DNA of 64,000 nt from Promethearchaeota archaeon (GTDB lineage Archaea; Asgardarchaeota; Heimdallarchaeia; Hodarchaeales; Hodarchaeaceae), in NCBI GenBank assembly GCA_048938105.1, contig JBHLMN010000022.1:32001-96000 (forward strand), written 5' to 3'. Position 1 is the first letter of the stretch; the number at the start of each line of letters is the position of its first letter. A program made the translations under genes and the position numbers. This document shows, piece after piece, positions 25,761 to 60,681 of the stretch. Below the pieces are notes generated by a model. It had not been told where the DNA came from, did not search any database, and was given only the letters and a program-made list of their open reading frames with translations.

Positions 25761-25772
25761 CCCCCAGTTATA

Positions 25773-37560: not shown

Positions 37561-37580
37561 GCTTATTTACTCATGAAAAT
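37559..37580 (+). repeat. Array boundary site, copy 8
   Basis: atgcttatttactcatgaaaat, exact core. Confidence 0.92.
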
Positions 37581-37683: not shown

Positions 37684-37817
37684 AAAGGAAATTAACAAGG
37701 AAATTTCTTTTTCTCAGATAACCTTTTTAGATGATCAAGCAACATGAATAGAAGTAAGATTTATTCAATGGGTTGGACATGGGAAATGAAATTATTCATA
37801 CTGGAGCAGTTTAGATA

Positions 37818-42049: not shown

Positions 42050-42604
42050 ATGAAGCGTTTTTGTCCATATTGTGGCAATCAGATTGACAAAACTGACATT
42101 TATTGTCTGTATTGCGGGAAAAAAATACCTGAGGAAGCAAAACGCCCTGAGAAGGAAGTATCTTGGAAACCACAGACCATGTATACCACTCCACCAGCCA
42201 CTCCATATCCTGTTCCCCCTCGATCCCGATATCAACCACGAACTTTTCATCCAACTCAACAAGCAACACTTGGAGATCGGTGCTTTGCATTATTCATCGA
42301 TAATTGTATTAGTTATAGCATTAGCGTGGTATCGTGCCTGATCTTGTGTATCCCTTTGGGATACGCTTATGATTGCATCAAAGATGGGATTCGAGAGGGA
42401 CAATCATTTGGGAAGGGGGGGATGCACCTAAGGGTTGTTGATTTTCGAACAGGGAGGCCAGCTACAATAGGACAATCAATGATTCGCAACTGTCTCTGTG
42501 GATCATGCGATTCTTCGACCTGTTATTGCTTTGCGATTCTTGATAGTAATGGTAGAAGAATCGGTGATAAGATCGCTGGAACAGTCGTCATAAAAGACTA
42601 TTAA
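42050..42604 (+). CDS. RDD-family membrane protein with N-terminal zinc ribbon
   Basis: CPYCG..CLYCG; ATLGDRCFALFID; GQSFGK..MHLRVV; RRIGDKIAGTVVI. Confidence 0.9.
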   Translation: MKRFCPYCGNQIDKTDIYCLYCGKKIPEEAKRPEKEVSWKPQTMYTTPPATPYPVPPRSRYQPRTFHPTQQATLGDRCFALFIDNCISYSISVVSCLILCIPLGYAYDCIKDGIREGQSFGKGGMHLRVVDFRTGRPATIGQSMIRNCLCGSCDSSTCYCFAILDSNGRRIGDKIAGTVVIKDY

Positions 42605-42626
42605 TCGCCAGGGGTAAAAATAGGAA

Positions 42627-42696
42627 TCATTCTTTGGTCAAAATTTCTCGAATGGGATCAAAATACAACTGTTGATAGGACTCACGTAATTGTTTC
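42627..42696 (-). pseudogene. ATPase extreme 3'-end remnant
   Basis: tctttggtcaaaatttctcgaatgggatcaaaatacaactgttgata aligns to ~49279-49348 including the stop position. Confidence 0.85.
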
Positions 42697-43616: not shown

Positions 43617-45032
43617 TCAATAAGTTGAAGATCCGCGCATCTTCGATAGTATCGCCCCAACATTAAGAAGCCCTTTGAAAATGAGGCCTGGTTCACCAAG
43701 CTGTAAGGCTTTGTATTGAATTCTTAGCAGTCTACGGGGATTTTTATAGAAATATTTGGTAAAACTATTCTTTATTCCTGATATTTCTTCTGATGAATAA
43801 TTGGATAATCGTTTATCAGCCCGAACAAAAAGCTCGCTCTCATCAATAACACCTTTTTTAACCGCATTTATCCATAACTGTGTGCCTACCACATAGGTTA
43901 AATCGTAACAACTAATTAAATCTAGAGGTACGGTATCAAAATATTCCAAATTTTGCTTAATGTGCTTTTCTGTTTCAAATGGGGCTCCTATAATGAAAAA
44001 TCCTACTGTTATTAAGCCTGCTTTATTAGCTAATTTTATTGCGTTTATTCCTTGCTCTACTGTCGTTCTTTTATTGTAAAAGTCAAGTACGTCTTGATTA
44101 GCGCTTTCAATCCCAAAAAATACTGCGATTACTCCTGCTTTTCGCATTTTCTGAAATAAATTAAAATCCACTGAGTCCACTCTTCCTTGAACAGCCATCT
44201 TGATCTTTATCTTCTCTCCAATGATTCTGTCCATAATTTTGTGAACTCGCTTCTTATTCAGTAAGAAATTGTCATCACCAAAAGCAATATATCTGTATCC
44301 TTGCTTAACTAAACATTTTATCTCATTGACAACATTATCAACACTCCTTGCACGGTACTGGCTATATATCATACGAGCACAAAAATGACAATTAAAGGGG
44401 CATCCTCGCGTGCTCATGAGCCATGCGAGATTAAGTCGTGCATTACCAAGATACCCATACTTTTTTTTATCAATTAATTCCCAAGCGGGGAATATACTCG
44501 AATCCAGGTTTTTGACTTGCATGACCCCAGGATTTTTTATTATTTTTCCATCTTTCTTGTAAATTAATCCAGGAATATCTTCTAAGGATGTTTTTTGCAC
44601 AATAGAGTTGAGAATATGTGTAATGTAGCCTTCTGCTTCTCCTAAACAGGTTAGAAAAGACCCTTCAATATATTTATGAGTAATGTTACAATGTGGCCCA
44701 CCACATAATATGAATCCTTTTGGATTCACCTCCTGTATATCTTTGATGATCTTTTGGACATTATTCAGTACAAGAGTATAACAGGTAATCAAGATGAAGT
44801 CTTGTACTGTAATAATCTTCAGAAATTCTTTCCTTGAGAGCTTGTCAACATTTAAATCAAGAAATGTTACATTATACCCTTCTCTTAGTAGTGGAGCCCC
44901 AAGATAGAGGAGCCCGAGAGGAGGAGCTAAGCTCTTATTTGCTTTCCATCTTTTTCCAAATGAATATTCATTAAATGGTGCGTGTAAAAGTAATACGTTC
45001 TTACTCCGTCCTTTTTCCAATTTAATGTCCAC
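43617..45032 (-). CDS. Cobalamin-binding radical SAM protein
   Basis: PPLGLLYL and GGPH in the B12-binding domain; TRGCPFNCHFC CxxxCxxC; GIESANQ. Confidence 0.93.
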   Translation of the reverse strand: MDIKLEKGRSKNVLLLHAPFNEYSFGKRWKANKSLAPPLGLLYLGAPLLREGYNVTFLDLNVDKLSRKEFLKIITVQDFILITCYTLVLNNVQKIIKDIQEVNPKGFILCGGPHCNITHKYIEGSFLTCLGEAEGYITHILNSIVQKTSLEDIPGLIYKKDGKIIKNPGVMQVKNLDSSIFPAWELIDKKKYGYLGNARLNLAWLMSTRGCPFNCHFCARMIYSQYRARSVDNVVNEIKCLVKQGYRYIAFGDDNFLLNKKRVHKIMDRIIGEKIKIKMAVQGRVDSVDFNLFQKMRKAGVIAVFFGIESANQDVLDFYNKRTTVEQGINAIKLANKAGLITVGFFIIGAPFETEKHIKQNLEYFDTVPLDLISCYDLTYVVGTQLWINAVKKGVIDESELFVRADKRLSNYSSEEISGIKNSFTKYFYKNPRRLLRIQYKALQLGEPGLIFKGLLNVGAILSKMRGSSTY

Positions 45033-45426
45033 TCCTCGTTAAAAGTGCGTTTTAGATCTAAACCAAAAGGATAACACTTAAACTAGAATAGAAAATAAAA
45101 AGTAGTAAGGGATAAGAAATTACAATTTTCTCTTGAAATTTTGATGAAAATTGCTCCCAAGAAAATGTATTCCTATTGCAATTTTTCTGAAAAAATCGTT
45201 CTCTAGCATTTTTTCTTTTTCAGCTAGAATGGTTTGCCATTTTTCTACCAGAATGTCAATTAACTGTTTGAATATCTTATTTACATAGTCGAGATTCGGA
45301 TATAATGGGATAAAAGCATTAGTTGCAGTAAAGATTCAATAAATCACATTCACTCTTTAAATTTCTTGACTTAAGGATTTCTCTGACCATTATGTGTACT
45401 ATTTCACTACCTCTGATTTTATCGCA

Positions 45427-45918
45427 TTAATCGAATGGGGAAGGAATATGAGATGTCCAATTGTTTGGTAGAGGGTCAACTTTTCCAGTAAGAGGAACTT
45501 CCCATACCTCCGTGACCATCTCCCCTTTATGAGTCGAAAAAACTCCATTAGCTACAAAGATCGCACCAGCTAAATCTTTTACTCCAAGTATTGGGAATAA
45601 AAGTCGGTTTTTCGTCTGTGTACTTGGTTCTGCTTCCCAGTCAAACATCAATGGATCGCTTGATTCTATTTCTTGATTACTTAATTTAATAATAATACGT
45701 TCCCATCTCAAATATCCCATTCGATCCCCGATATTTTGAATGAGAATTATTACATCGATATTTTCATGGCGTCTTTTTGTTACACGAGCTTCTGTAAGAT
45801 TGAATTGTGGCCCACGAATTCGGTTGTGCCACGTATTATAAATTGACAGTATCAAAGCAATAAAGCCTAGTAGTAGCCCTCCAATAGCTGCAATACTTGT
45901 AAGAAGATCATTTGCCAA
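45427..45918 (-). CDS. Hypothetical N-terminally anchored protein
   Basis: 163 aa; N-terminal TM; GGAGG upstream. Confidence 0.75.
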   Translation of the reverse strand: MANDLLTSIAAIGGLLLGFIALILSIYNTWHNRIRGPQFNLTEARVTKRRHENIDVIILIQNIGDRMGYLRWERIIIKLSNQEIESSDPLMFDWEAEPSTQTKNRLLFPILGVKDLAGAIFVANGVFSTHKGEMVTEVWEVPLTGKVDPLPNNWTSHIPSPFD

Positions 45919-46487
45919 TTTCTTCGCCTCCTTTATGTTCTAATGATCTCACATTTTCTTTTCGCGCCGACCTATTTAAATTCTATAGAGTAAGAAAATG
46001 ACAATTTTTATTAGGAAGATTGTTGAAAAATCTACATCTAAAATTAACTTAAGTAAGTTTCAATTGACTTGTCTAGACTTTCAGGAACCTCTTTCTGTAT
46101 GGATTTAAGATATAATTATAGCTATCCTTTATTGATATCCTATAAATCTCTTTAATGAATAATCAGACCCAAAAAGGATAATGGGAGAGAAGAATGGGTT
46201 GCTTAAATCAGGAGAATTAGTAAAGAGATTGAAACAGTCCTAAAAACATTCAACAGTTTTTTCGTGATAATTTGTAATTTTTTATTCCTATTGGCTTTAA
46301 ATAATAAGCTTGACAGTTATCAAAATGTGTGTGATATTCATTTATCTCTGAAAGAAGCCTACTTTGGGACCCTCGCAAAGACAACACATATTGATATCAA
46401 CTTTTACAACATAGTCATGATGAAGTGAGTTTTCTTGAGTTATGAGAAGGTGTATGGTGTGAAAAAAGGATTATTGAGGGGATTCCC

Positions 46488-46805
46488 TTGAAAGATACTC
46501 ACAAGGTTTTCATCTCTGATGAGACATGGCAATTAATAAGAGGATTTTTACCTGTTGCCCGTAAAGTAATGAGAGCTCCAGATTTTTCGGAGATAGATTT
46601 AGTAGAACTAGTTATCCAGCAGGGCTTAGGCCAGATGCTCACCGATATTGTTTCTGAGGGCCCAGATGTCTTGCTAGAGAGTTTCAAGCACATACATCTA
46701 GAAGATCCTGAAGAATTGGGCAGGATCATCGTTGATAAATTGAAAAAAAGAGAGACGAGAACACTGTCAAAAAAATGGAGAAAACAGATGTCTAGATTTA
46801 TCTAA
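46488..46805 (+). CDS. Hypothetical small protein (possibly DNA-binding)
   Basis: 105 aa; GAGGGG upstream; N-terminal strand-helix pattern HKVFISDETWQLIR. Confidence 0.65.
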   Translation: MKDTHKVFISDETWQLIRGFLPVARKVMRAPDFSEIDLVELVIQQGLGQMLTDIVSEGPDVLLESFKHIHLEDPEELGRIIVDKLKKRETRTLSKKWRKQMSRFI

Positions 46806-46846
46806 TATTCAAATAATTATGATAATGAAATAAATCAATAGTAATA

Positions 46847-47536
46847 GTGGAATCAATTGTTTTAAAAGATGATAGAATGTCAGACAATGAGAAACATAAG
46901 CCTGAAGAAAAGGAAAAAAATAAAGAAAGAAAGAAAACTGATGAAAATAAATTTGAGGAGTTAAAATTTTTCATCCAGATATGGCAACATCACGACACGA
47001 TGTTTTGGAATAGATTCACAACCTTTATTGCTGCCGCCTCGATATTGATAACATTTTTAGGTGCAGTTGTTCTTTTCGGCATAAGTAATCAAAATCTAAG
47101 AAATGAAAACCTACTATCAACGCGAATATCAGCCATAATAGTTCTAATGGCGGGAGCTTTTGTGGTAATTACGATTTTTTGGTATTTCATGTTGAACCAC
47201 ATTTTTATATGGGTAGATTTTTACTTAAAAAAAGCTAGGGCTTCTCAAAAGGAACTTGGTATGAAAATACTTTTTAATAATAGTGAAGGGCCAATATTTC
47301 CTTTTCTAGCAAAAATTCCAAGTATTCGTATTATGGACTTTCTCTTTAGCTTTTTCTGTATATGTGGAATCTTGGTGGTAATTCAGCATTTTTTGATGGT
47401 TCATTTCTCTTCATGGTCAATTGATAATCCTGCAATATTCATTGGAATCATAGTTATTACACCAATCGGAACACTGGTAAGCCAACACTTGTTGAATCAG
47501 TGGCGTTCAAATAAAATTAAAGCATTTGAATTTTAA
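46847..47536 (+). CDS. Hypothetical four-TM membrane protein
   Basis: Charged N-terminus then 4 TM helices. Confidence 0.75.
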   Translation: MESIVLKDDRMSDNEKHKPEEKEKNKERKKTDENKFEELKFFIQIWQHHDTMFWNRFTTFIAAASILITFLGAVVLFGISNQNLRNENLLSTRISAIIVLMAGAFVVITIFWYFMLNHIFIWVDFYLKKARASQKELGMKILFNNSEGPIFPFLAKIPSIRIMDFLFSFFCICGILVVIQHFLMVHFSSWSIDNPAIFIGIIVITPIGTLVSQHLLNQWRSNKIKAFEF

Positions 47537-47620
47537 CCTCTGAGGATAGTTCAAATTCCTTTTTCTTTATTTTTCTAGGAAAACGTATCCCGTTTAACAT
47601 CAATGAATCATTATCAACAA

Positions 47621-48067
47621 CAGTATCCAAGCCTTTCTTGCGAAACCACCCATGTTCCAAAGGACTTATGTAGATGTGGATCGATTTCGGATCAAAAATG
47701 GCATACTTCAACGAAAAGGTTTCTTTGACATGCTGGAAGACGTTAATACTGGAACGATCAACATTAAGAGGAATGTGTGCAAAGTGGAAAGAGGGGATCG
47801 TTTTTCTCATGGGAGAGGCCTCTCCAGAGAAGAAATCACTAAGGTTACTCACTCCTCCTAGGTATGGAAAAAGCGCTTATTTACTCATGAAAATGATTTC
47901 ATCGTGAGATAAACCTTTTTTAAGGCTCAAAGAGCTATTAACCTGTAGTTGGGATTTGGTTCAAAAGGGAAACCACCTTGAGGTATAGTAAAGTGGTTCT
48001 CATTTTAATGCTTTTCATTTGTCTAGTTGTCTGTGGATTATCCCAAGAGCTTCCCTTTACCCCTGAA
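47621..48067 (+). repeat. 447-bp direct repeat of 51246-51692: ATPase 5' remnant, boundary site copy 9 (ends 47894) and signal-peptide fragment
   Basis: Constant offset of 3625 bp; ORF 47517-47852 shares SPM.K.IPSFHF.HIPLNVDRSSIN with the ATPase N-terminus. Confidence 0.95.
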
Positions 48068-48124
48068 GACCAGAAAAATTTCTTATCTTGGGTCATCCTT
48101 GGGACAGATAAATACCATTTGTAA
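47978..48124 (+). pseudogene. Orphan signal-peptide ORF, truncated paralog of the 51603 gene
   Basis: MRYSKVVLILMLFICLVVCGLSQELPFTPED vs MKWSTTVLILMLFIWLLVCGKSQELSFTPEN. Confidence 0.75.
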
Positions 48125-48238
48125 GGGTGGGGTGATTGTTCGTCCAGCATCCATGTTTATATGCCACGTAAGGTGAAACTTTTATAAGAGAAAATGACAA
48201 CAATAACAGGATAATTGCATTCATGAGGGAAAGATACA

Positions 48239-49042
48239 ATGAGAATAACCCATTTGATTAATAATCAAGAAGAAATTGATATTCTTCGATGGTTTAATAG
48301 AAAAAAACCAAAAAAGAGTAAAGAACTGCTATTACCTATACTTTTACTGTCAATACTCGTCTCGAATCCATATTATCATGTTCTTGCTGATCAGACTCAG
48401 GAAAAAAGAATTAATCCAGAACACTTTACAATAGCTGTTCAGGTTGGCGATTGGAGGGAATATAATGTGTCGAAATATTATAATCCCACTGGGATGGGTA
48501 GACTGTACACAGAGGAAGGGCAAAGACTCCTTGTCACAATAATTAATATTACACACAACTTCATAGAATATCGGGTTGAGATAATTCTAGTAAGTGGGGA
48601 GGTCAAAAATCAATCTTCTCAACCAAAAATAAATAGGGCATTTTACCCATGGGTTGGACACCATGTGACAACTACAAATAGAACACTGTTAGAACAAGCC
48701 TTAAAGAGAGACGAAATTCTGATATATGAATTTAAGGAGCATGAATTAAATGTGCAATGGATACGGAACTCTACGTTTTACCCAGGGATCTTTGAGGAAA
48801 ATCACACGTTTATTGAAGAGTGGAATGTCGATCTGAAAACAGGTTGGTTAAATCATTATAAGTACAAAGTAACAATCAATGGAACGATAACACGAGAAAT
48901 CTTTATCGAAACAATAAGAAGTGTGGAACCAGTTAATACAACAACTGGGGACTCTTTCGCTTTAATTGTGATTCCAATCATAACAATTTATATTAGGAGA
49001 CGAGTAAAGAGGAAGAAGAAGGATTCATCAGAATTCACTTGA
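48239..49042 (+). CDS. Hypothetical secreted protein with C-terminal TM anchor
   Basis: Hydrophobic signal segment; VQVGDWREYNV; W.VDLKTGWL; TM plus RRRVKRKKK tail. Confidence 0.78.
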   Translation: MRITHLINNQEEIDILRWFNRKKPKKSKELLLPILLLSILVSNPYYHVLADQTQEKRINPEHFTIAVQVGDWREYNVSKYYNPTGMGRLYTEEGQRLLVTIINITHNFIEYRVEIILVSGEVKNQSSQPKINRAFYPWVGHHVTTTNRTLLEQALKRDEILIYEFKEHELNVQWIRNSTFYPGIFEENHTFIEEWNVDLKTGWLNHYKYKVTINGTITREIFIETIRSVEPVNTTTGDSFALIVIPIITIYIRRRVKRKKKDSSEFT

Positions 49043-49278
49043 TAATAAAAAAATATAAATAATATGAAAAGGATGTATGAGGATAATTAAAGGAGGAAAA
49101 AGCAAGGCCGTTAATGTGTATTGTTTACTTACACTGGATAAAGACAGTGAACGAAAAGTGAAGGCGAAAAAGCATCATATTAAACCTTATTCCCAATGTT
49201 GATCATCCTACAAGAATATCAGCTAGGGGAGCACAAGCCAGAGGCACCATTAATAAACTAATTACTCCTCAAGGAGAA

Positions 49279-51495
49279 TTATTCTTTGGTCAGAATTTCC
49301 TGAATGGGATCAAAATACAATTGTTGATAAGAGTCACGCAATTGTTTCTGAAATGAAAGATTAGATAATTCATCTAAATCCATAGACAAGTCAGGATCTA
49401 AGAGAAACTCATTAGTCTTCAAGAGGGAAATCTGACCGTTGACCGAAATGATACAGCGGCGTTCATCTTGTTTAGCTTTTAATAATTGACGTAATTGCTC
49501 ATATTCATCCTTTGGAATACCTAAGAGATTCGAAACCTCGAAAGGGTTGAATTTCGTGAAGAAAAGAGTCAACAGGCCAGTGTTTGTTAACATAGGTTGG
49601 TCAATAATAGGTTCCGTGCCAATAAAAATCATAGAAATGTCATATGCACGTAAGGTCCAAGGGCCACGTCCAATCATAGATTCAGGAGATTTCGAACGGA
49701 AATTCTTCGCAGGAGCGAGCTTTTGGATCTCATCCAACACGAAGACATTTTTCGGCAACGATTCTTCTTTGAAAGGAGCTCGAAAGGTACGAACATAATA
49801 ATATAAATTCTGAAAGACCACATTTAGAAAAATCTCCCGCCCGCTTTGATCCTCCATAGCCTCAAAGGCAGAGAGGTCAATAATGGCATTCCGATCAAGG
49901 AGGTTGGCAACCTCAAAGGTGGTCTTTGATACCGTGAAACACCGCCCCGTATTACCAAAGAAGAGTTTTTCGACACGATTCAAGATGCCTGTCGCAGTAT
50001 TCTCAAGATAAGCCCCCTTCATTCCCAACTCATCGGGATTCTCCAGATAGAAAAGAAACCTCCGAAAATCCCCCTGATCTTTCACTGTTTGAATAACAGT
50101 AAGATGAAGCATCCGCCGCATCTGGGGAGATACAGCATCCTCATTATCAAAAATATGTTCTAGAATGGAGACCGCAAATTGGATATGGTCTTCAACAGGG
50201 ATAAGAGGTTGACCTGCATCATTCAGAGGAATTTGGAAGATATTAATCCCCCAAGGGAAGGAGGCAGACCCAGGCTTTAAGTAGAGAAAATCATCACAAA
50301 AAGTCCTAACAGGGGAAAGATACTCCCCTTTCGGATCAAAAATGAGAAATTTGACCCCTTTTTGGTGAAATTCGTTGATTAAACCATAAATGAAACGACT
50401 TTTGCCCTCACCTGTCATACCAAAAACAGCCATGTGCCGACAGAGGTCTTTCCCGTCAATTAATAAAGGAACATTAGAGGTTTTGCCGCTAATAATGGGA
50501 ATCCCAAGGTTGATGGCACGTTGAGGAGAAGTTTCACTTATACCCGTGGATAAGGTGTAATCAGATTTGTTGGGGACGAGAGTATACCCCTCGTGGGAGA
50601 ATTGCCGCTGAGGAGGAGCAATGAAACTCATTAGAGACGAACCATCCAAAGTAATGGGGGACACCAGCTTTCTGGAAACACACAACTTCCTGAGGGAAGG
50701 AAAACGTCTGAAAAAAGTGGGATAAGAGCGAGCTTTAAGTCCCTTAGAGACAAATAAGACAGATAAACGATTAAGCTTGGCTTTTAACAACTCAGGACTG
50801 GTTTCCACAACTAAAATCCGAGGAGAGAAGCGAAAACAACCAGCTTCCTCCATGATGTTCATTCGCTGAGGTTGGAAACGGCGTTCGACTTTACCCTGTT
50901 GAATATCAAAACGGACATGACTCAGATGCCGTTCCTGATCATCATCAGATTGGAACTTCTTGGGGACTTTGATGGATTTGAAGACAAATTGAAGAAAAGC
51001 AAATTGAGGATTGTCCGTCAAAATTTCAAGCAGATGATCAGTGAAACCATCAGCTGTGGTAAAAGGAGGTTCTGCAGTGCCCTCTAAACCAAGGATTCCT
51101 CCACAGAAAAAAGTAGGGCCATCTGTACTAACCTGAAAAGACTTAGTCAAAAGGTCAAGAAGCACATGAATCGGGGTGGGTTCAATCTTGTGAAAGTCAG
51201 GATGTAAGCCCATGGCAATAGCAAACTGCTGAATGGTGGCGATACCAGTATCTAAGCTTTTCTTGCGAAACCACCCGCGTTCAAGGGGACACATGTGGAT
51301 GTGGACAGATTTTGGATCAAAAATGGTATACTCCAACGAAAAGGTTTCTTTGGCATGCTGGAAGATGTTAATACTAGACCGATCAACATTAAGAGGAATG
51401 TGTTCGAAGTGGAAAGAGGGGATCGCTTTGCTCATGGGTGAGGCCTCTCTAAGGGAAAAATCGAGTTGATGACTCACTCCTCCTAGGTATTGCAT
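49279..51495 (-). CDS. HerA/FtsK/VirB4-superfamily P-loop ATPase (DUF87-like); only intact copy in the window
   Basis: RHMAVFGMTGEGKS (Walker A), FLIFDPKGEY, VFVLDEIQKL (Walker B); visibly GC-richer than its neighbours. Confidence 0.88.
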   Translation of the reverse strand: MQYLGGVSHQLDFSLREASPMSKAIPSFHFEHIPLNVDRSSINIFQHAKETFSLEYTIFDPKSVHIHMCPLERGWFRKKSLDTGIATIQQFAIAMGLHPDFHKIEPTPIHVLLDLLTKSFQVSTDGPTFFCGGILGLEGTAEPPFTTADGFTDHLLEILTDNPQFAFLQFVFKSIKVPKKFQSDDDQERHLSHVRFDIQQGKVERRFQPQRMNIMEEAGCFRFSPRILVVETSPELLKAKLNRLSVLFVSKGLKARSYPTFFRRFPSLRKLCVSRKLVSPITLDGSSLMSFIAPPQRQFSHEGYTLVPNKSDYTLSTGISETSPQRAINLGIPIISGKTSNVPLLIDGKDLCRHMAVFGMTGEGKSRFIYGLINEFHQKGVKFLIFDPKGEYLSPVRTFCDDFLYLKPGSASFPWGINIFQIPLNDAGQPLIPVEDHIQFAVSILEHIFDNEDAVSPQMRRMLHLTVIQTVKDQGDFRRFLFYLENPDELGMKGAYLENTATGILNRVEKLFFGNTGRCFTVSKTTFEVANLLDRNAIIDLSAFEAMEDQSGREIFLNVVFQNLYYYVRTFRAPFKEESLPKNVFVLDEIQKLAPAKNFRSKSPESMIGRGPWTLRAYDISMIFIGTEPIIDQPMLTNTGLLTLFFTKFNPFEVSNLLGIPKDEYEQLRQLLKAKQDERRCIISVNGQISLLKTNEFLLDPDLSMDLDELSNLSFQKQLRDSYQQLYFDPIQEILTKE

Positions 51496-51519
51496 GAGTG
51501 CTTATTTACTCATGAAAAT
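51471..51519 (+). other. Array boundary site, copy 10 (reference copy; putative recombination site)
   Basis: CATGAGT(51493-51499)-GCTTATTT-ACTCATG(51508-51514); overlaps the first ATG of the ATPase ORF. Confidence 0.85.
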
Positions 51520-51602
51520 GATTTCATCGTGAGATAAACCTTTTTTAAGGCCCCAAGAGCTAAGACCAATAGTCTGGGATTTGGATCAAAAGGGAAACCA
51601 CA

Positions 51603-54600
51603 TTGAAATGGAGTACCACAGTTCTCATACTAATGCTTTTCATTTGGCTATTGGTCTGTGGAAAAAGCCAAGAGCTTTCATTCACCCCTGAAAATCAACT
51701 CTCTAATGGTCAGGCTGCTGATCCTCGGTTTGGTAATTCCAAAATACATCAATACACTCCCCATGATCCCATTATTATTACAAGAAATAGTGATTTTGCC
51801 TCCCAAGGATATCCTGGTTCAGGAACTATTGATGATCCATATTGGATTAAGGGATTTAATATTACTTCTCCTGATGGTGATTTAATTGCCATTAGTGATA
51901 CTACTGCATATTTCTGTATTGCTAACAACTATCTCAATGGATTATCCACAGCGTGGGGAGGTATCGTCCTGAACAACGTTATTAACGGAATAATCGAAGA
52001 CAATCTCGTGTTAAACCATGAATATTTAGGAATAGTGACTTATTCCTCATCCAATATTGTTATAGTTAACAATATTGCTTTCAATAATGGTTTGAACGGA
52101 ATTCGACTTGAAATGGAATCAAATAATAACCTACTTGAAAACAATACTGTTCTGGATAACAAAGCAGATGGGATTTGGATGGGAATTTCATGTAACTATA
52201 ATAGGATTATCAATAATACGGTCTATGCTAACATTGGGATTGGAATCTATTTTGGTTTGGAAGATTTTTCATATACTGGGTGTAGTGATAGCTTCATTTT
52301 CCGTAATTTTATTTACAATAACAGCTATGGCATAAAATTCGAGTCTTCAGATAATAACATAATCATTGGTAATAAAATTTCCAATAATACTCATCATGCC
52401 ATTTATCTTGACGCTACGTCTGATAGTAACAGAATAGCAATTAATAATTTTTTTAACAATAATCTAGGGGAGCAGTCTCAAGCTTATGACGATGGAGCTG
52501 CCAATGTAATTTTTGCAAATCATTGGGACGACTGGATCACACCAGATGACGATGGAGATGGGATTGTCGACGCCCCCTACAATATCAGTGGTCTATCAAC
52601 AACACAAGATGGATTTGCACATGTATCTGCTATCATACCGCACAGCGACATTTCTATTGATGGAGATGCGATGTTTCATGCTACTGCGGCTGCCGAAAAT
52701 TGGCCTGGGAACGGAACCTTGTCAAATCCCTATATCATTGAGAGACTTATCATGATTGACATAAGGAATCGGACATTGATTGAAATTGCCAACACAAGCA
52801 TCCATTTTCAAATAAGAGACAGCTTACCTTGGGGAGGATCTATCGTTTTCTCTAAGGTTTCACATGGAATAATTCACAATAATACTATGGTTCGGAGTGG
52901 GATAGCCATTTATTCCTCCAGAAATTGTACCGTGTCAGATAATTTAGTAACTGGTGACTCAGGAGACGGAATACACCTCCTAAACTCCAATCACACATCC
53001 ATTCTTAGTAATCAAGTGTTCAATAATCAAGGTCAGGGAATTTCCATTGACACCTCTTGGGATAGCACCATCTCTGGAAATACTGTAAACAACAACAACG
53101 AAGACGGAATTCGCTTTAAGGATTCTACAGCCATTATTATTTCTAACAACACGGTTTCCCAAAACGGGGTTGGAATTTATCTTGGGAGTTCTAATAATAG
53201 CACTATTTCTAACAATATAGTCACCGACAACAAACACAATGGAATTTTTCTTGAGGATTCATCTAATAGCGCTATTTCCAACAATACAATCACTGGTTCT
53301 CCGTGGAGTGGAATTCGGCTATTAAATTCTAGTGAAAGTACCTTGGGAAATAATTCGATCACCGAATGTAGTGATGGAATTTCGGTTGATGAGTCGGAAA
53401 CACTCACCCTGACCAATAATATGGTCACTAGCAACAGTGCGGATGGAATTGACCTTTTTTATTCAGGGAATAGCATCCTATCGGGGAATATGGTCTCTAA
53501 TAATGGTGGTAATGGATTTAATATTTTTGATTCAGAGACCAGTGTTCTGACTGCCAATACAGCCTCTAATAACAATGACCTTGGAATTTTTCTTAGAGAT
53601 TCTACAGACATTACCCTTTCCAACAATACAATCAAGAGCAACAGCGGTGGAATTTTTCTTTGGTATTCTGGGAATAACACACTTGTGAGCAACACTATCA
53701 CAAACAATGGAAACATAGGAATAATCCTTGCTACTTCCAAAAACAATACGATTTTAGATAATATTTTGGTAAATAATGATCTTTTCATCGGGCATGCCGA
53801 AATTAATTGGGATATGCATGTGACATCTCCTACTCTAACTGATTATTTTCAAGCTGATGTAATGAACAATTCTATAAACGGGAAACCGCTCGTATATTGG
53901 CAACATGCTGCAGGTGGAACAATACCAGCTGGAGCTGCCCAGGTCATTCTGGTGAACTGTACGGCAGTAACAGTGGCGAATCAAGATCTTTCAAATGTCT
54001 TGTTTGGTTTACAAACGATTTCCAGCTCATGCGTGTCCATCTTAAACAATGTCATAGTTAATACTAGTATATCTGGAATCTATCTTCTAGATTCTATTAA
54101 TAGCACGATTGCTGATAATAAAATTACACACAACTATGGACTTGGAATTTTTCTTCAGGATTCTAATTCTAGCGCTATTTCCAACAATACGGTCACCAAC
54201 AACAGACACAATGGAATTTTTCTTGAGGATTCTAACAATAGCAATAGTTCAAAGAATGTTGTCACCGACAATGATGGTCATGGATTTTATCTTGGGAATT
54301 CTAAGAATTGTATGATTTCATCAAACATTATTTCTTACAATCGTGGAAAGGGAGTCGAAGTTAATGATTCTACCAACATCATCATTTCCAGCAATACCAT
54401 CTCTAGTAACGACAATGGGATTCATCTTGAGAATTCATGCAATAGCGTTATCTCTGACAATACAATAAACTACAATGAGGAAGACGGAATTCTATTTAGG
54501 GCCTCGGAGAATAGCACTATTTCCAACAATACGGTATCCAATAACATGAAAGGAATTATTCTTGGGGCCTCTGGGAATTGTGTTATTTATAACAATACAA

Positions 54601-55190
54601 TCACTGACCATGATTTTCAGGGAATCGAAATTCATCGTTCTACAGCTATTACTATTTCCAACAATATAGTCTCCAACAACGACAACAATGGAATTATCCT
54701 TGAGAATTCATCCAATAGCGTTATTTCTGACAATACAATAAACTACAATAGCGGAAACGGAATTGTATTTTGGTACGATGAAATCTTAATTTCTAAAAAT
54801 AACTTAATTTCTCATAATACAGTGTCTAACAATAGTGGATATGGTATTTTTATAGGTGGATCATCTAAGTTTTGCAATGTATCGTGGAACATTTTTAATG
54901 GGAATAATCGTGAGGGAACATCTCAAGCTAAAGACGATGGAAGAAATAATACCTTTGAACATAATTACTGGGACGATTGGACGGAACCCGACACGGACGG
55001 GGATGGGGTTGTTGATACACCTTATGATATTGATGGTGATGCAGAGAATCAAGATATGTACCCACGCGTTTCTCCAAATCCTGTTTCCACCCCATTTTTG
55101 AGCGAAAATATCCTCATGGGGTTAGTTTTTCTCGTACTCATCCTTCCTGTCCTGGGGATCTTAATTCGCAAGCAGAAGAGAAATTTTTGA
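51603..55190 (+). CDS. Large NosD/CASH beta-helix surface protein with TM anchor
   Basis: Signal peptide, two HxxIxI/GxGTxxNPY modules, many beta-helix repeats, TPFL-TM-RKQKR tail. Confidence 0.92.
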   Translation: MKWSTTVLILMLFIWLLVCGKSQELSFTPENQLSNGQAADPRFGNSKIHQYTPHDPIIITRNSDFASQGYPGSGTIDDPYWIKGFNITSPDGDLIAISDTTAYFCIANNYLNGLSTAWGGIVLNNVINGIIEDNLVLNHEYLGIVTYSSSNIVIVNNIAFNNGLNGIRLEMESNNNLLENNTVLDNKADGIWMGISCNYNRIINNTVYANIGIGIYFGLEDFSYTGCSDSFIFRNFIYNNSYGIKFESSDNNIIIGNKISNNTHHAIYLDATSDSNRIAINNFFNNNLGEQSQAYDDGAANVIFANHWDDWITPDDDGDGIVDAPYNISGLSTTQDGFAHVSAIIPHSDISIDGDAMFHATAAAENWPGNGTLSNPYIIERLIMIDIRNRTLIEIANTSIHFQIRDSLPWGGSIVFSKVSHGIIHNNTMVRSGIAIYSSRNCTVSDNLVTGDSGDGIHLLNSNHTSILSNQVFNNQGQGISIDTSWDSTISGNTVNNNNEDGIRFKDSTAIIISNNTVSQNGVGIYLGSSNNSTISNNIVTDNKHNGIFLEDSSNSAISNNTITGSPWSGIRLLNSSESTLGNNSITECSDGISVDESETLTLTNNMVTSNSADGIDLFYSGNSILSGNMVSNNGGNGFNIFDSETSVLTANTASNNNDLGIFLRDSTDITLSNNTIKSNSGGIFLWYSGNNTLVSNTITNNGNIGIILATSKNNTILDNILVNNDLFIGHAEINWDMHVTSPTLTDYFQADVMNNSINGKPLVYWQHAAGGTIPAGAAQVILVNCTAVTVANQDLSNVLFGLQTISSSCVSILNNVIVNTSISGIYLLDSINSTIADNKITHNYGLGIFLQDSNSSAISNNTVTNNRHNGIFLEDSNNSNSSKNVVTDNDGHGFYLGNSKNCMISSNIISYNRGKGVEVNDSTNIIISSNTISSNDNGIHLENSCNSVISDNTINYNEEDGILFRASENSTISNNTVSNNMKGIILGASGNCVIYNNTITDHDFQGIEIHRSTAITISNNIVSNNDNNGIILENSSNSVISDNTINYNSGNGIVFWYDEILISKNNLISHNTVSNNSGYGIFIGGSSKFCNVSWNIFNGNNREGTSQAKDDGRNNTFEHNYWDDWTEPDTDGDGVVDTPYDIDGDAENQDMYPRVSPNPVSTPFLSENILMGLVFLVLILPVLGILIRKQKRNF

Positions 55191-55326
55191 GGTAAAATAT
55201 ACGACATAAAAAGCATTTAAGCCTCAAAAAGCTACAACCCGTAATTTGGGATTAGGTCCAAAGGTGATTCTCTGGGGAAAAAAAAAAAGGTATTTCTCAA
55301 AAAAAGGGATGAGTATGTGATATGCA

Positions 55327-55375
55327 GACTCACTCCTCCTAGGTATTGAAAAAGCGCTTATTTACTCATGAAAAT
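55327..55375 (+). repeat. Array boundary site, copy 11
   Basis: gactcactcctcctaggtattgaaaaagcgcttatttactcatgaaaat. Confidence 0.93.
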
Positions 55376-55409
55376 TCGCAGGAAGTGTAAACAGTGAATA
55401 AGCTATATG

Positions 55410-57110
55410 TCATTCTTTTCTTTTAATAATTCCTTTTTGTAGTATTAGAGCGACAGTTATTAGTACAGTGATAATCAATCCGCCTATAACATTACCAGGA
55501 AAACCATTGGCATTTGTTCTAGTACTAGGAGTACTATTGACACTTGTACTAGTAGATTCCACCAAGGTTGTGGTAATAGTTGTATAACCAAAATTAATGA
55601 TTGTGAATGTATTATCAGATGTATCAGTATTCCAGACCCCATCAGCACAGCTCGCGTTTACTTTGATCAAATAGTTGGTGCCATTAGGTACTGTGGTGAT
55701 ATCCCATATATACATGGTTCCAGTAAAACCTGACTCCAAGGTAACCCACGATGTCCCCCCATCAGCGGAAAAAGAGACAGAATACGTGATTGAATGAGCC
55801 CAGGAATCAACACCATCTGTCCAAAAAATCGCGATTTCGTCTGAAAATGTCTCTTCACCATTAGGATGCGATACTGTTAGACCGAATATAAAGTGATTTT
55901 GAGGTAGATTCGAGGACGTGAGCGGATAGATATCTTGGTTATTCACTGAACCAGCAATAGGATAGGATTCATCTACAATACCATCCGTATCATTATCTGG
56001 GGTTGTCCAGTCACTCCAATAGTTAAACACGAAAATATTATTCGAACCATTATCAACTGCTTGAGATCCCGTATCAATGTTTCCAGAGAACTCATTGAAT
56101 AGAACTCTGTTATTAACAGAGCCATCTCGAAGTGAAACTCCATACCTATAGTTGTTGGTGAGAGTATTGTTGGATATCATACTGTTCTCAGAGTATTTAA
56201 AGCTAATTCCGTCCCCATTGTTGTCGTTAATACTATTGTCAGAGAGAATACAATTCTCAGAAGTACGAAGGGAAACTCCAGATTGATTGTTATTGTTGAT
56301 AGTATTGCCAGATAAAGTGTTATTAAATGAGGCAGTAAGACGAATTCCGTATTTAGTATTATTGGTAACGACATTGTCAGAGATGATACTATCCTCAGAG
56401 GAGCTGAGCCAAATTCCATTTCCACTGTTGTCGGTGACAACATTGTTGGTTAAAGTAGAATTCCCAGAAGTGATGAGACGAATTCCAAATCTACTGCTGT
56501 TGACAACAATATTATTGAACAGAGTAATACTTCTAGAGTAAAGAATCTCAATTCCTCCCAAACAATTGTTGGTAATTATATTATTAGATAATTGTCCATT
56601 AGTCACATTTTCTAGATAAATTCCAAATTCTCCTTGGTTTATTATACAGTTACTGATTCGAAAATATAAATTAGTATCCAGAATAGTTATCATGTTATAA
56701 TCATAGGAGCCAGAAATATTAAAATCATCAATGAGAATCGGAGACGAGGGGGTTCCATTACCAGGCCAATTATTCTTACTTGCTTGGGCAATGAAAAGAG
56801 AATCCCCCTCTATATAGATATAAGGATATTGTTTGGTTTCATTTATCACGTCTGCTTCGAATTTATCACGCAATTCCTGATTGAAACTCAAGATCTCTTG
56901 AGAAGAATCACTAAGGATCCAAGGACATGCTTCTATATCATCCTGGGTTTGACCAGGAAATTGAGATGCTAGATCATTTGAATAAAGGCATTTGGATTGA
57001 ACCATTATAGGACTGACCAAAAGGCTAAAAATACTCATGAATAGTACAAAATACAAAATGAATAGTTTTAACAAGGAGTATATAATTTGAATTTTATGAA
57101 ACTTCATCAT
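55410..57110 (-). CDS. NosD beta-helix surface protein with Ig-like module and PGNVIGGL-TM anchor (paralog of 22100-24055)
   Basis: Long near-identical blocks with the 22100 protein, fewer beta-helix turns. Confidence 0.9.
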   Translation of the reverse strand: MMKFHKIQIIYSLLKLFILYFVLFMSIFSLLVSPIMVQSKCLYSNDLASQFPGQTQDDIEACPWILSDSSQEILSFNQELRDKFEADVINETKQYPYIYIEGDSLFIAQASKNNWPGNGTPSSPILIDDFNISGSYDYNMITILDTNLYFRISNCIINQGEFGIYLENVTNGQLSNNIITNNCLGGIEILYSRSITLFNNIVVNSSRFGIRLITSGNSTLTNNVVTDNSGNGIWLSSSEDSIISDNVVTNNTKYGIRLTASFNNTLSGNTINNNNQSGVSLRTSENCILSDNSINDNNGDGISFKYSENSMISNNTLTNNYRYGVSLRDGSVNNRVLFNEFSGNIDTGSQAVDNGSNNIFVFNYWSDWTTPDNDTDGIVDESYPIAGSVNNQDIYPLTSSNLPQNHFIFGLTVSHPNGEETFSDEIAIFWTDGVDSWAHSITYSVSFSADGGTSWVTLESGFTGTMYIWDITTVPNGTNYLIKVNASCADGVWNTDTSDNTFTIINFGYTTITTTLVESTSTSVNSTPSTRTNANGFPGNVIGGLIITVLITVALILQKGIIKRKE

Positions 57111-57316
57111 TCCCCTTCAACTTGTTACTCCGACTTTCTTGATAAATAGGAAGATAGGAAAAACTTCCCATTATTATTTTAATTCTGATCAAACACATTA
57201 CTTTGAGTTTTATTATAACAACCCTAATGAATACTGTCTAAGGATAATCATTAAATGATAATTAAAAAGAGCTCCTTGGTTCTAGTCATTTTTTTTTTCT
57301 TTATGACTCTTTAGTC

Positions 57317-57395
57317 CTATTAGCTTTCACTTATACTTTACGAGACCAATTTAGGACAAAAACCTGAACAAGAATACAAGATGGGTGTATTCGGA
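57317..57395 (+). repeat. 79-bp repeat (partner 33707-33785)
   Basis: Gap-free alignment with 33707-33785. Confidence 0.85.
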
Positions 57396-57397
57396 TT

Positions 57398-57549
57398 GAA
57401 ATTTACAGGTCGCCTGTGTTTCGTAAAACCTCAATCGATAAATCATGCAAAATTGTTTCGATAGTTTTTCTGTCAGTTGGTGTAGACTCAAAATACAGAA
57501 CTCTCAACTCATCCGCTAATTCAGGCCCTCGTCAGTTGTTACAGTTTCC
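57398..57549 (-). pseudogene. Small-GTPase 3' remnant
   Basis: acctcaatcgataaatcatg...gatagtttttctgtcagt...gttgttacagtttcc colinear with ~35562-35714. Confidence 0.75.
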
Positions 57550-57575
57550 CTTACATGAATTATTATTAAGACGGA

Positions 57576-58922
57576 TTAAATCCTTAAGTTGTAATGGAGG
57601 GTGTCTTGTAAATCTTGGATTTCTGCAATTGGAACTTGATTCACATGTGTCAGGGGATTATCGGTTAGAATAACATATTTTAAAGCGGGACAGGAGTCTA
57701 GCGGGGAGAGATCAATGGTTTCCAACGAATTCCTATTAAAGAATAACTCCCATAACGACGGATGATTCCTGAACGGGGATAGATCAATGGAGGTAATAGC
57801 ATTATCACCCAACCTGAGTTCACGAAATTTAGGACAGTGCTGCAAGGGGGAAAGGTCTATGGTCTGAAAACGATTGTGGCTCAAGTCGAGATCTTTGAAT
57901 TCAGGTAACTGTGCCAACGGGGAAAGGTCAAGAGCGGTTAATTCATTGTCTTTCAATGAAATTTCTTCTAGATGGTCACAATTTCTGAGGGGGGAGAGGT
58001 CAAGACTTTGAAGTCCGTTATTAAATATAGTTATATCTTCTAGACTGTTTTTCGGAGGCATGGGGGGTAACACAACGGATGTCAAGGTTCTTAAAGAAAG
58101 AATTCCAATATATCTTAGGACAGGGAGGTGAGCTAATGGGGTCAAGTCAAGAGTCTGAAAATCGGTTCCTTCCGATAATTCGAAGTGGGTCAATTTCTGA
58201 CAATATCGAATCAGGTCAAAACAGACCATATCAATGATGTTCAAGTTTTCAGGGATCTTGAATTCGGTGATATCTCGTGTTTCCTTGAGTGGTTCCAAGG
58301 AGATGTACGGAAAGTCAAGGAATACATTCTTAATGAATGTTTCTTCAATGATCCGTGTAGGTGGGAAGAATCTTTCCATGAACAGAGTACACGGGACATA
58401 AGCATTCCCTGTTTCTTCATCTCGAATGACCCGATAATCAGTAAATGTTGAGATAAGGCGCGCCTGATCAATAATCTCAGATAATGTCAGGTCAATCTTC
58501 TCTGGTATTTCGGGATAAATAATCAATTGACTCTTTCGCCCAAAGACATACCCGCTATATTTTATTTCTAATTCTTCTGGATCAAAGATTGTTTCTGAGA
58601 TTGGCATCCAAACAGGTCTTTCTAGAACTTCGTTGATAGAGATCCGTTCATAGTTTTTCTTCATCTTTTCTTTACTAATCGTGGTTAAGGGACAAAGATA
58701 AAATACTAGATCCTGGTCACGGTATTCTAACACGGTATACAGATAATTCGTGGGATCGCCGAGATTCACGTTGAGTTCTTGGGCGACTAATGTGGCAATG
58801 ATAGAATCATCTTTGTCATACCGCAATTCACGCCTTGTTTGAGCAATCTTCTCGCTTATTTCCGCCTTCGAGAGTTGTTTCTGTTCGTGGATCTTCCTGA
58901 TTACCTGTTCCTTACTCTGCAT
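57576..58922 (-). CDS. LRR protein with N-terminal helical domain resembling the archaeal RPA/DUF2240 N-terminus
   Basis: Repeated N.L..LDLSPL..C..L; N-terminus EQVIRKIHEQKQLSKAEISEKI...IATLVAQELNVNL. Confidence 0.85.
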   Translation of the reverse strand: MQSKEQVIRKIHEQKQLSKAEISEKIAQTRRELRYDKDDSIIATLVAQELNVNLGDPTNYLYTVLEYRDQDLVFYLCPLTTISKEKMKKNYERISINEVLERPVWMPISETIFDPEELEIKYSGYVFGRKSQLIIYPEIPEKIDLTLSEIIDQARLISTFTDYRVIRDEETGNAYVPCTLFMERFFPPTRIIEETFIKNVFLDFPYISLEPLKETRDITEFKIPENLNIIDMVCFDLIRYCQKLTHFELSEGTDFQTLDLTPLAHLPVLRYIGILSLRTLTSVVLPPMPPKNSLEDITIFNNGLQSLDLSPLRNCDHLEEISLKDNELTALDLSPLAQLPEFKDLDLSHNRFQTIDLSPLQHCPKFRELRLGDNAITSIDLSPFRNHPSLWELFFNRNSLETIDLSPLDSCPALKYVILTDNPLTHVNQVPIAEIQDLQDTLHYNLRI

Positions 58923-59189
58923 CCCGAGCCCTCATGCTACGCGTTTTCCACCCATACCTGCTTGAGTTGAATATATTTTTGATCATTCTGATGATTGATC
59001 TCAACTTCTCTTACCTCCATAAATACCCTTTGTTTTTATGTCTGCTATGGTGATTTGTCTCTATCACGAATCAGTTCAGTCATCCAATAGTATAAGGGGC
59101 CAAAGAACATCCCAAAAAGTCCGACCACGAAAAGTACAGGGGAGACTAAGGTAAGGTCAACTCCATAAACGAATTCCCAATAAGATCGC

Positions 59190-59315
59190 GAGGAATGTGT
59201 TCGAAGTGGAAAGAGGGAGTCGTTTTACTCATGGGAGGGGTCTCTCCAAGGAAAATTCTACGATGTAGCTTACTCCTCCTAGGTATTGCAGAGGTTCTTA
59301 TTTACTCCTGAAAAT
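59190..59315 (+). repeat. ATPase 5' remnant plus boundary site, copy 12
   Basis: gaggaatgtgttcgaagtggaaagaggg exact to the ATPase; ends cttatttactcctgaaaat. Confidence 0.92.
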
Positions 59316-59350
59316 TTCAATTGAAATTCAGATCCCACCAAATATAGTTT

Positions 59351-59612
59351 TCATTTGCATTTCCAACGAAATCTTTTGGAAACAATGGAAACGAGAAGAA
59401 TGAGGAAAAGTAAACTGAAGGAAGAAAAGGGTAACGAAAAGGAGGCTGGTTGATAGTGGTAGACATCAGATCAGACCTCAGGCCATGTACTATAGATTTT
59501 GGAGGATGAGACATGGAACTCTTCTATGATATCGTCTACATCAAGGAGCACCCACGTGTCAACGGTACATGGTAGACAGGTGAAGTTTTCACCCCAATAT
59601 TGGTACGGGAAG
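59351..59612 (-). pseudogene. 3' remnant of a C-terminally anchored protein gene
   Basis: Frame reads FPYQYWGENFTCLPC...WPEV*SDVY...SLLFLILLVSIVSKRFRWKCK*; one internal stop, no start found. Confidence 0.5.
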
Positions 59613-59677
59613 GTAATATGAAAGAAGACGAAAAACTACTATACTGGAACTCGTCGTTGTATCCCTGAAAGCGTACC

Positions 59678-60664
59678 TTAATTTTGACTCCCTTTTTTCC
59701 ATTGAAATAACGGCTTTAACTTGTCCCTCTTTTTCTGGAACTTATTGTTTTCTTCTACAATAAATATAACAGAATCTTCTGCTTCTAATTTCTCCCAGAG
59801 AACGTTTAACTCTAATTTATATTCACCAGGTTCAAGTTTATACAAAATCGCATTCTGTGTTTCAGCTATTAATTCGTTGTTTATCTTCCATGTGTATTTG
59901 GGTTTATTTATTATCGTCTTTTTTCCAGTAAAATAACTTAGAGAACGTAATTTTACTGGAGGAGAGATGGCTTCATCTCCTTGTTTTGGGGACATGATTT
60001 TTGCGACCAACTGCAGAGGCTTAGCATCTGGTACTTTTAAGGTGGAACTAATCGTATTTACATTATTATATGCTATTATTTCTATTAAACAGTTTTCACC
60101 ACCAATTAAAGCTTCTTTTTTGATCATAATTTCGTTGATTGTCAATCTTGAAGCAATTCTTCGCCAGTTAATTCCCCCATCTGCACTTGTTCGAACAGTA
60201 AAATACAGGGGAATAGATTCTGAATGAGTAGCTTTCCAATAGACTCTATATGTATCTTCATCCCTCTCTTCTATCTTGACTTCTTCTTCAAAAATCGGTT
60301 TTCCAGCTGGTATAATAATTTCATGAATTTCAATATCTTTGAAAATAAATGTTATTCTATTTGCTCCCTCTGGAAAGGGTATTTTTGACTTAACAAATAA
60401 TGTCTCATTTGTCACTAATCTTTTAAATTTATCTTTATTCTCAAAAAGTTTTGGATAAGTTCTTGAACCCAAGTTTGCACCCCATTGTAGCAACAGTTGT
60501 TCATCATTATACAACGCGATTGTTAATGGGCTTTCTTCAAAATTTTTTACTCCCATAGAGTTCAAAGTTAGGTATGAGGGTCGTAAATACAGCTTATTAT
60601 CAGGGGATAAATATCCTGAAATACTTAAATATTGAACAGGTTTGTTTTTATCTTTTCCTTTCAC
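59678..60664 (-). CDS. Hypothetical beta-sandwich (Ig/FN3-like) protein, partner of upstream protease
   Basis: 328 aa; VRTSADGGINW motif; 17 bp downstream of 60682-63510. Confidence 0.78.
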   Translation of the reverse strand: MKGKDKNKPVQYLSISGYLSPDNKLYLRPSYLTLNSMGVKNFEESPLTIALYNDEQLLLQWGANLGSRTYPKLFENKDKFKRLVTNETLFVKSKIPFPEGANRITFIFKDIEIHEIIIPAGKPIFEEEVKIEERDEDTYRVYWKATHSESIPLYFTVRTSADGGINWRRIASRLTINEIMIKKEALIGGENCLIEIIAYNNVNTISSTLKVPDAKPLQLVAKIMSPKQGDEAISPPVKLRSLSYFTGKKTIINKPKYTWKINNELIAETQNAILYKLEPGEYKLELNVLWEKLEAEDSVIFIVEENNKFQKKRDKLKPLFQWKKGSQN

Positions 60665-60681
60665 TTTTCTACATCCTCTAA

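Follow-up and report, generated by a model that had tools for sequence, protein, structure and literature searches.

The window analysed here is a stretch of 64,000 nucleotides from an archaeal genome (contig C37, positions 32001-96000; the contig is 108 kb long and the assembly comprises 5.85 Mb in 65 contigs). It contains one intact gene for a P-loop ATPase of predicted VirB4-like architecture, together with a series of relics of this gene. Judging by their sequences, the relics are centred on the junction of an upstream gene, a short conserved repeat (referred to as the site) and the ATPase gene, and not on the ATPase gene itself. Most likely, they are the scars of repeated recombination at the conserved upstream region and the 5' end of the gene. 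For the array as a whole we tentatively favour recombination anchored at this gene, which would have piled up foreign alleles and cargo as in the orphan arrays of Rhs genes and of the type VI secretion system (T6SS). The source names of the homologues place the genome in Hodarchaeales/Heimdallarchaeia.

The intact open reading frame (ORF; 49279-51495, minus strand) is unbroken over 738 aa in the open-frame listing of the window. Its first ATG falls in the spacer of the site and is found in only two site copies, and in the databases this protein and its relatives are annotated with a length of about 718 aa. Thus, the true start is most likely Met21 at 51435, which yields a protein of 718 aa, and the site is upstream DNA located about 60-110 nt before this codon.

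The site belongs to a repeat family of about 50 nt that overlaps the start of the ORF. The copy before the intact gene (51470-51523, minus strand) consists, on the gene strand, of box1 (ATTTTCATGAGTAAATAAGC), an 8-nt spacer and box2 ((C)AATACCTAGGAGGAGTGAGT). Hardly any two copies agree in the spacer, which is about 8 nt long. Conservation of the boxes across copies is about 91-93% by our own count from the alignment, while spacer and leader vary freely. Genome-wide, a nhmmer profile built from seven copies gave 14 matches at E<0.1; these all fall on the C37 minus strand between 5.9 and 97.8 kb, and nothing outside C37 reached an E below 0.7. The boxes taken singly show the same restriction: box1 occurs 11 times with at most two mismatches (chance expectation about 0.02 by our own estimate) and box2 nine times with at most three, always on the minus strand of C37. 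The array of sites spans at least 92 kb in one orientation.

The site copies are mosaics of one another, and the alignment places the breakpoints at several positions. A 7-bp dyad surrounds the spacer of the intact copy; by eye it is seen in two copies only. Rfam and tRNA scans of the window gave no matches; the site is therefore not a known RNA gene or tRNA target. A leader hairpin before the start codon was considered and rejected, as RNAalifold gives no pairs. A named 5-bp leader helix, paired in 71% of the cells with one compensatory pair, was no better than shuffled sequences.

With the 738-aa ORF as query, tblastn detects five 5' relics and two 3' relics in the window, all on the minus strand. 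The 5' relics are located at 47622-47864 (residues 3-83, 77% identity), 4341-4478 (residues 9-56, 56%), 35432-35527 (residues 2-33, 59%), 59182-59291 (residues 1-37, 50-65% in two pieces) and 25774-25857 (residues 1-28, 57%), the 3' relics at 37338-37580 (residues 644-738, 57%) and 42630-42695 (residues 717-738, 91%). At the DNA level the relics are 78-89% identical to the intact gene. A first-pass annotation of the window had described an intact ATPase with site-anchored remnants that differ too much for one recent amplification. Both statements agree with these results, but three of its remnants had to be corrected. The copy at 55327-55382 (minus strand), a paralogue of the copy at C37:97786, is a site with about 23 nt of leader and no coding relic. 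For the copy at position 1, the upstream half of the site is inside the window (1-43, minus strand; box1 with a deletion, and box2), but the coding relic of about 10 codons lies just outside, at C37:31942-32000. At 41896, where a weak 3' remnant had been suspected, there is no ATPase match (best blastx E 0.3).

Read together with their sites and flanks, the relics, all on the minus strand, differ in how much of the gene they retain. A site is followed by 65 codons counted from Met21 (79% amino-acid identity) at 47622-47898, by 36 codons from the start and then a stop at 4341-4534, and by 17 codons from the start at 59182-59324. At 35432-35770, the 3' end of a Ras-type GTPase gene (35573-35770, residues 106-171, 70%) precedes a site (35505-35562) and 13 ATPase codons. 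A similar arrangement is present at 37338-37685: the GTPase 3' end (37614-37685) is followed by box1 only (37555-37585), which is joined within the spacer to ATPase codons 644-738 (57% amino-acid identity, stops present). The relic at 42536-42696 comprises the last 22 codons (91%) and a 3' flank (42536-42611). At 25692-25889 a site and about eight codons, with the start codon lost, are fused directly to the type of 3' flank found behind the stop codon of the 42630 copy. Two further copies are a box1-only half-site at 63979-64000, which continues past the window end, and a degenerate site at 13440-13477 (nhmmer E 0.098) without a coding relic.

At least four copies of the ATPase gene in the window were once complete, namely the intact one and those at 42630, 37338 and 25774. 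The earlier view of the ATPase as a recurring part of repeated units is thus upheld. To judge from the alignment, the 25774 copy has lost its entire ORF by a clean deletion; in our own reading, a few bases are shared at the deletion joint. The divergence of the relics looks like divergence under constraint, since the boxes are conserved while spacer and leader vary, and since dN/dS amounts to 0.36 for 65 codons and to 0.56 for 28 (small samples). All relics fall in the ATPase clade of the window's own gene, and blastx found no database allele closer to them than the resident one.

Truncated ATPase 5' ends lie on one side of the junction, and truncated Ras-GTPase 3' ends or NosD 5' ends on the other. 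GTPase 3' ends are found upstream of the sites at 35509 and 37535; two more occur without a site, at 57421-57612 (minus strand; residues 104-167, 52%) and at 33484-33627. Outside the window, an intact Ras-family GTPase gene (C37:97825-98346) ends exactly at the far upstream site C37:97786. In genome G012 (contig C180, locus L047, 3271-3786), a 90% identical GTPase gene is followed by a site and a broken ATPase gene. An ATPase-GTPase operon was considered and discarded, as no intact pair is present among the loci examined.

In three places (51474, 47849 and 63979) the flank is of a second type, in which the site is accompanied by the 5' end of a divergent NosD gene. The upstream flank of the intact copy recurs at the 47622 relic (47621-48067 matches 51246-51692 at 84%) and at the 63979 half-site (51497-51877 matches 63981-64361 at 80%). 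Paralogous NosD cassettes have both ends in common, as 54639-55377 also matches 65149-65836. A second motif of 58 nt, m2, is present in five copies, all on the minus strand of C37 (window positions 51530-51589, 47905-47964 and 55202-55259; C37:96014-96072 and 97665-97721), and nowhere else in the genome. It lies between site and NosD start in three copies and just past the NosD stop in two. From these positions, the NosD cassette 51603-55190 is bracketed by m2 as well as by sites.

The blocks between sites measure 1.8-19 kb, with one site per block and all sites in the same orientation. Their genes point in either direction and encode NosD/beta-helix, LRR, Kelch, PKD, TPR, FtsX/ABC, SBP, PIN, NYN and radical-SAM proteins. 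Of roughly 50 Beta_helix/NosD genes in the genome, about 9-10 are on the 108-kb contig, an approximately 12-fold enrichment by our own open-frame count. Where the cargo DNA of 44-64 kb is present in other genomes of the genus, it is on contigs unlinked to the ATPase except in a single case, close to the G016 gene. Assemblies of public runs over 44001-64000 are de Bruijn contigs that are broken at the sites. Their joints between site copies (47790 to 59235 in X3, 59257 to 55318 in X1) are inside repeated words and neither support nor oppose excision.

Of the 20 other genomes in the genus, 19 have a match to the ATPase, with one to three full-length matches each. Box1 and an element resembling box2 are present upstream of full-length genes in G011, G016, G019, G020, G004 and G007, at the same position; the second ATPase copy of G011 is preceded by a weaker form. 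In a quick tree of 29 of the 30 loci (the partial locus L025 was left out), the orthologues bearing this element fall in two sister clades. Because orthologues carry it as their own upstream element, the site belongs to the ATPase gene and not to a foreign element. Comparison of these upstream regions identifies it as ancestral upstream DNA of the gene, with promoter, leader and binding site as candidate roles.

The genomic surroundings of the gene differ between clades. A second full-length copy in the same genome, on C18, is 70% identical; a luciferase-like gene precedes this copy as well as the orthologous genes of G011 and G019, with a small ORF in between in G000 and G011. In a third clade (51-55% identity), dNK, CYTH and MazG genes of the same strand lie upstream of the ATPase gene, as seen in G008 and G006. 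The loci of this clade are L021 and L023 and also L022, L034 and L035; beyond those of G008 and G006, the other three have similar ORF layouts, seen as layouts alone. The dNK, CYTH and MazG neighbours may point to a link of this clade with nucleotide metabolism.

In the window's own clade the contexts vary. No neighbour of the ATPase is conserved across the 30 loci. A NosD gene follows or faces the ATPase in G000, G011, G002 (C77) and G019 (C272), but not in G016 or G004. Compared with the matching 140 kb of the complete genome G011, C37 has only the ATPase (87%) and a pyridoxal-phosphate (PLP) decarboxylase (86%) in common, which are 74 kb apart on C37 and 34 kb apart in G011. Furthermore, an additional site is found in G011 at a distance of 86 kb, on the opposite strand, and 14 kb downstream there is a 3' relic of 20 codons. 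Nine of the 20 other genomes carry detached relics or additional sites (G002, G004, G005, G008, G011, G012, G016, G019 and G003, the last on the strength of one weak site match); G017 would be the tenth, but its fragment lies against the end of a contig. No examined locus comes near the 14 sites of C37. Eight metagenome loci with relatives of 53-90% identity show no extra site or relic, among them four whose upstream flank measures 7 kb or more. The first-pass annotation had named stable single-copy synteny without nearby remnants as evidence against its interpretation. Such stability is found for the paralogous clades, but not for the clade of the window.

In G011 (locus L007, 3699-5198), the stop of the ATPase gene and the start of a NosD/beta-helix gene share 4 nt. 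This overlap suggests that motor and surface protein may be co-translated there. In G002 (C77, locus L046), four ATPase relics are located within 3.7 kb (175-3667), followed by a NosD gene. At 6991-11167, the same locus encodes a protein of 773 aa that ends in a Phage_integrase domain, as well as a protein resembling Mu transposase. These two enzymes were considered as agents of the rearrangements and rejected, as they have no homologue in the genome of the window.

The ATPase domain of the window protein contains a Walker A motif (GMTGEGKS) and a Walker B-type Asp-Glu pair. Among 44 homologues, residues G339, T341, G342, G344, K345, D568 and E569 are invariant or nearly so. In Pfam, only the central DUF87/HerA domain is recognized (residues 338-546, E 2.4e-17); PF03135 (CagE_TrbE_VirB) has no match in this protein or anywhere in the genome. 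All curated models score far below their cut-offs: the VirB4 model TIGR00929 gives 18.5 bits (cut-off 643.1), the HerA_Thermprot equivalog model 20 bits (cut-off 800) and NF053655 ('CedD'), the best sequence-family match of the ATPase domain, 47 bits (cut-off 600; 51.6 bits for the C18 paralogue). PADLOC reports weak HerA and mad8 matches only.

The AlphaFold2 model of the ATPase built on the 44 homologues has a pLDDT of 85 and a pTM of 0.80. A Foldseek search with the model ranks full-length TrwK/VirB4 of the R388 type IV secretion system (T4SS) first (E 7e-20). The ATPase domain aligns best to the VirB4 C-terminal domain 4ag6 (Z 29.3, r.m.s. deviation 3.2, 334 residues), closely followed by DndH-C (Z 28.2), HerA (Z 26.0) and TrwB (Z 23). 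The 300 N-terminal residues modelled alone (pLDDT 81) align to the TrwK N-terminal domain 7o42_A with Z 17.1 (263 residues, r.m.s. deviation 5.0), and the next unrelated structure follows at Z 8.9. Foldseek gives E 4e-6 for this domain. Sequence identity to the VirB4/TrwK structures is 9-17%. According to the models, the protein has a VirB4-like build in both its N- and C-terminal domains, in line with the HerA/FtsK/VirB4 class that had been proposed for it. The intact gene is thus predicted to encode a chromosomal motor ATPase of VirB4 architecture in the Hodarchaeales. As in T4SS VirB4/TrwK (PDB entries 7o42, 8rtd and 4ag5/4ag6), the predicted build comprises two domains with invariant Walker A and B motifs. 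Unlike these proteins, the window ATPase is chromosomal and has no VirB3, VirB6 or VirB2-like neighbours.

Stand-alone ORFs of about 300 aa that correspond to the VirB4-like N-terminal domain only (44-55% identity) were found in G000 (C38:6741-7664, locus L005) and as P0073 and P0081. They stop right before the ATPase domain and could be true split forms or large relics. Another metagenome contains a chimeric ORF of 221 aa (P0188), in which about 45 N-terminal residues of the ATPase are joined to a multi-pass membrane segment; by eye, this segment appears AI-2E/PerM-like.

Possible partners were searched for by Pfam among the 71 ORFs of C37. VirB3, VirB6/TrbL, a pilin, a coupling protein and a relaxase were not found; divergent archaeal partners could escape Pfam. 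TrbL/VirB6 has no Pfam match in the whole genome. The same search of the 108-kb contig revealed no integrase or transposase, and the three Phage_integrase matches of the genome are located on C14, C56 and C45. The three NurA genes are on C18, C15 and C63, the first of them adjoining a separate weak HerA-like match. The first-pass annotation had likewise seen no NurA, VirB6-like or relaxase partner, and this extends to the entire contig. Assignment as a HerA-NurA end-resection helicase was rejected, as NurA is not adjacent and the HerA equivalog score is far too low. The Ced DNA-import ATPase was rejected by its NF053655 score. Like the Ced/Ted import ATPases, the window ATPase is an archaeal motor of the VirB4/HerA class, but no CedA-like membrane partner was recognized on the contig by Pfam. 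Ced is a system of the Thermoproteota (Crenarchaeota).

The favoured anchored recombination would proceed in several steps. DNA of a related lineage would arrive with its own allele of the junction (upstream gene, site and ATPase gene). One end would recombine by homology with the resident gene or site, and the other end would join illegitimately, or a circular piece would enter via a single crossover. The previous site, with more or less of the previous 5' end, would be displaced yet retained, and redundant full copies would decay through internal deletions. After many repeats, a one-orientation array of at least 92 kb would result, its cargo blocks each bounded by a site and filled mostly with beta-helix, LRR and other surface proteins. 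Such a process would explain why all sites point the same way, why each block has a single site, why relic lengths vary, why an intact GTPase gene stands at the upstream end and why a recombinase is lacking. The relics also vary as functional orthologues do, and this constraint-like pattern, with its dN/dS of 0.36, would fit an origin from alleles of other lineages.

A comparable process has been described for T6SS effector-immunity arrays of Vibrio cholerae. In the passages of that study concerned with these arrays, a conserved gene beside a variable locus serves as the recombination anchor, and each import leaves a partial anchor copy and older cargo in a heterogeneous, one-directional array (PMC5361080). 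The same passages describe no dedicated recombinase, propose homology-facilitated illegitimate recombination and cite Rhs 'C-terminal displacement' as a comparable sequential displacement (PMC5361080). The window resembles orphan arrays of Rhs, contact-dependent inhibition (CDI) and T6SS loci in that partial anchor-gene copies of variable length bound heterogeneous cargo in one orientation. It differs from T6SS/Rhs arrays in several respects. The 5' end with promoter or leader is kept instead of the 3' end, the anchor is a VirB4-like ATPase instead of a toxin or spike gene, and the cargo consists of surface-protein and assorted genes in which no toxin-immunity pairs were seen. Additionally, the host is an Asgard archaeon and the array extends over at least 92 kb. 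Aloposons were also considered; as portrayed in the part of the source that deals with them, they integrate at tRNA genes and carry giant genes (PMC8813620), which does not fit the array of the window.

Several observations weigh against anchored recombination. For no relic did a donor allele turn up that is closer to it than the resident gene, so that the foreign origin of the alleles, like the recombination route, is what we infer and not what is observed. Seven sites are located downstream of the intact gene, and the simple model would need several tandem arrays. The half-sites at 37555 and 63979 both break inside the 8-nt spacer; this hints at a specific cut and keeps a site-specific mechanism alive. 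Finally, the contig order at the repeats rests on an assembly whose public de Bruijn counterparts break at the sites, and the dN/dS values rest on 65 and 28 codons.

The strongest rival, which we nevertheless consider unlikely, is duplication in place. The ATPase gene and its GTPase or NosD neighbour would have been tandemly duplicated by unequal crossing-over, and all copies but one would have decayed, the promoter-bearing junction being kept where it still drives a neighbour. Every copy is indeed a direct repeat, at least four were once complete, internal deletions are seen and the paralogous NosD cassettes are alike at both ends. A same-strand gene 260-470 nt downstream of some relic sites (LRR at 59270, NosD at 37535, a 942-aa ORF at 63979) could be driven from the junction, but five relic sites face a convergent gene and therefore cannot be its promoters. 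Furthermore, the copies are 11-30% apart in DNA although the intervening cargo is mostly unrelated and intact, and neutral decay would not keep the boxes while randomizing the spacer.

A site-specific mechanism of the integron type has a smaller chance still. A recombinase encoded elsewhere or of a new kind would cut the spacer between box1 and box2 and would insert and excise circular cassettes with one site each. The two conserved boxes around a hypervariable 8-nt spacer, the two box1-only half-sites that break in this spacer, the dyad around the spacer of the intact copy, and the single site per block with its constant orientation are what such an enzyme might produce. As in integrons, promoterless or mixed cassettes are delimited by direct-repeat sites that share one orientation, beside one conserved gene. 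Yet the dyad is not conserved among copies, the mosaic breakpoints are not restricted to the spacer and the same boxes precede single-copy orthologues as ordinary upstream DNA. In contrast to integrons with their folded attC sites, the array has no IntI-type recombinase, its site is the upstream region of a gene, and its cassettes of 2-19 kb contain several genes each in either direction. As to an enzyme, the integrase matches of the genome are all on other contigs, and the large integrase near the G002 relics has no counterpart here.

Improbable, too, is a more active part for the gene itself, in which the ATPase and its box1-spacer-box2 site form a platform that acquires cassettes without a recombinase. 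In a variant, the ATPase would be an export or assembly motor for the adjacent giant beta-helix proteins, and motor allele and cargo would be swapped together. Either way, the locus would be a self-renewing surface-protein island around a secretion-type motor. The first-pass annotation had proposed that the ATPase may move or import cassette DNA. This proposal is not borne out: the site is the upstream region of the gene, the sister clades reside in conserved neighbourhoods and no conjugation or integration partner was found.

Very improbable is the corresponding mechanism, in which the site would act like a clt or oriT locus for loading of the ATPase, which would then pump DNA inwards or outwards, with pieces starting or ending at the site: the predicted VirB4-like fold of both domains, the Ced DNA-translocating ATPase model as best (if far sub-threshold) family match, the site that always adjoins the gene and the half-sites that terminate in the spacer would suit such a pump, but a common fold is no proof of a DNA substrate, VirB6/TrbL and CagE_TrbE_VirB have no match genome-wide, the contig has no pilin-like, coupling-protein or relaxase match and the sister clades are in housekeeping-type neighbourhoods (a dNK-CYTH-MazG operon, a luciferase-like gene).

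Under anchored recombination, the window would document, in concrete and datable form, the growth of a variable surface-protein island that apparently needed no dedicated mobile-element enzyme. Asgard archaea are the archaeal group nearest to eukaryotes. A literature search, with supplements outside its scope, found no paper that links VirB4, DUF87 or HerA with Hodarchaeales and none on such an island in Asgard archaea. The family of predicted VirB4 architecture, near-universal in one Hodarchaeales genus and with no partners recognized, is a candidate for biochemistry, and the strongly conserved box1 and box2 offer a ready test object for studies of Asgard promoters or DNA binding.

Other repeats in the window are of a different kind. 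Three tandem repeats of 591 nt, 70-97% identical, are located at 10034-11515 inside a 1057-aa NosD-type ORF (9980-13153). Two pairs of dispersed direct repeats (2096-2652 and 7198-7753; 18515-18739 and 25484-25708) are 92-93% identical; they have no relation to the ATPase and are of more recent origin than the site copies.

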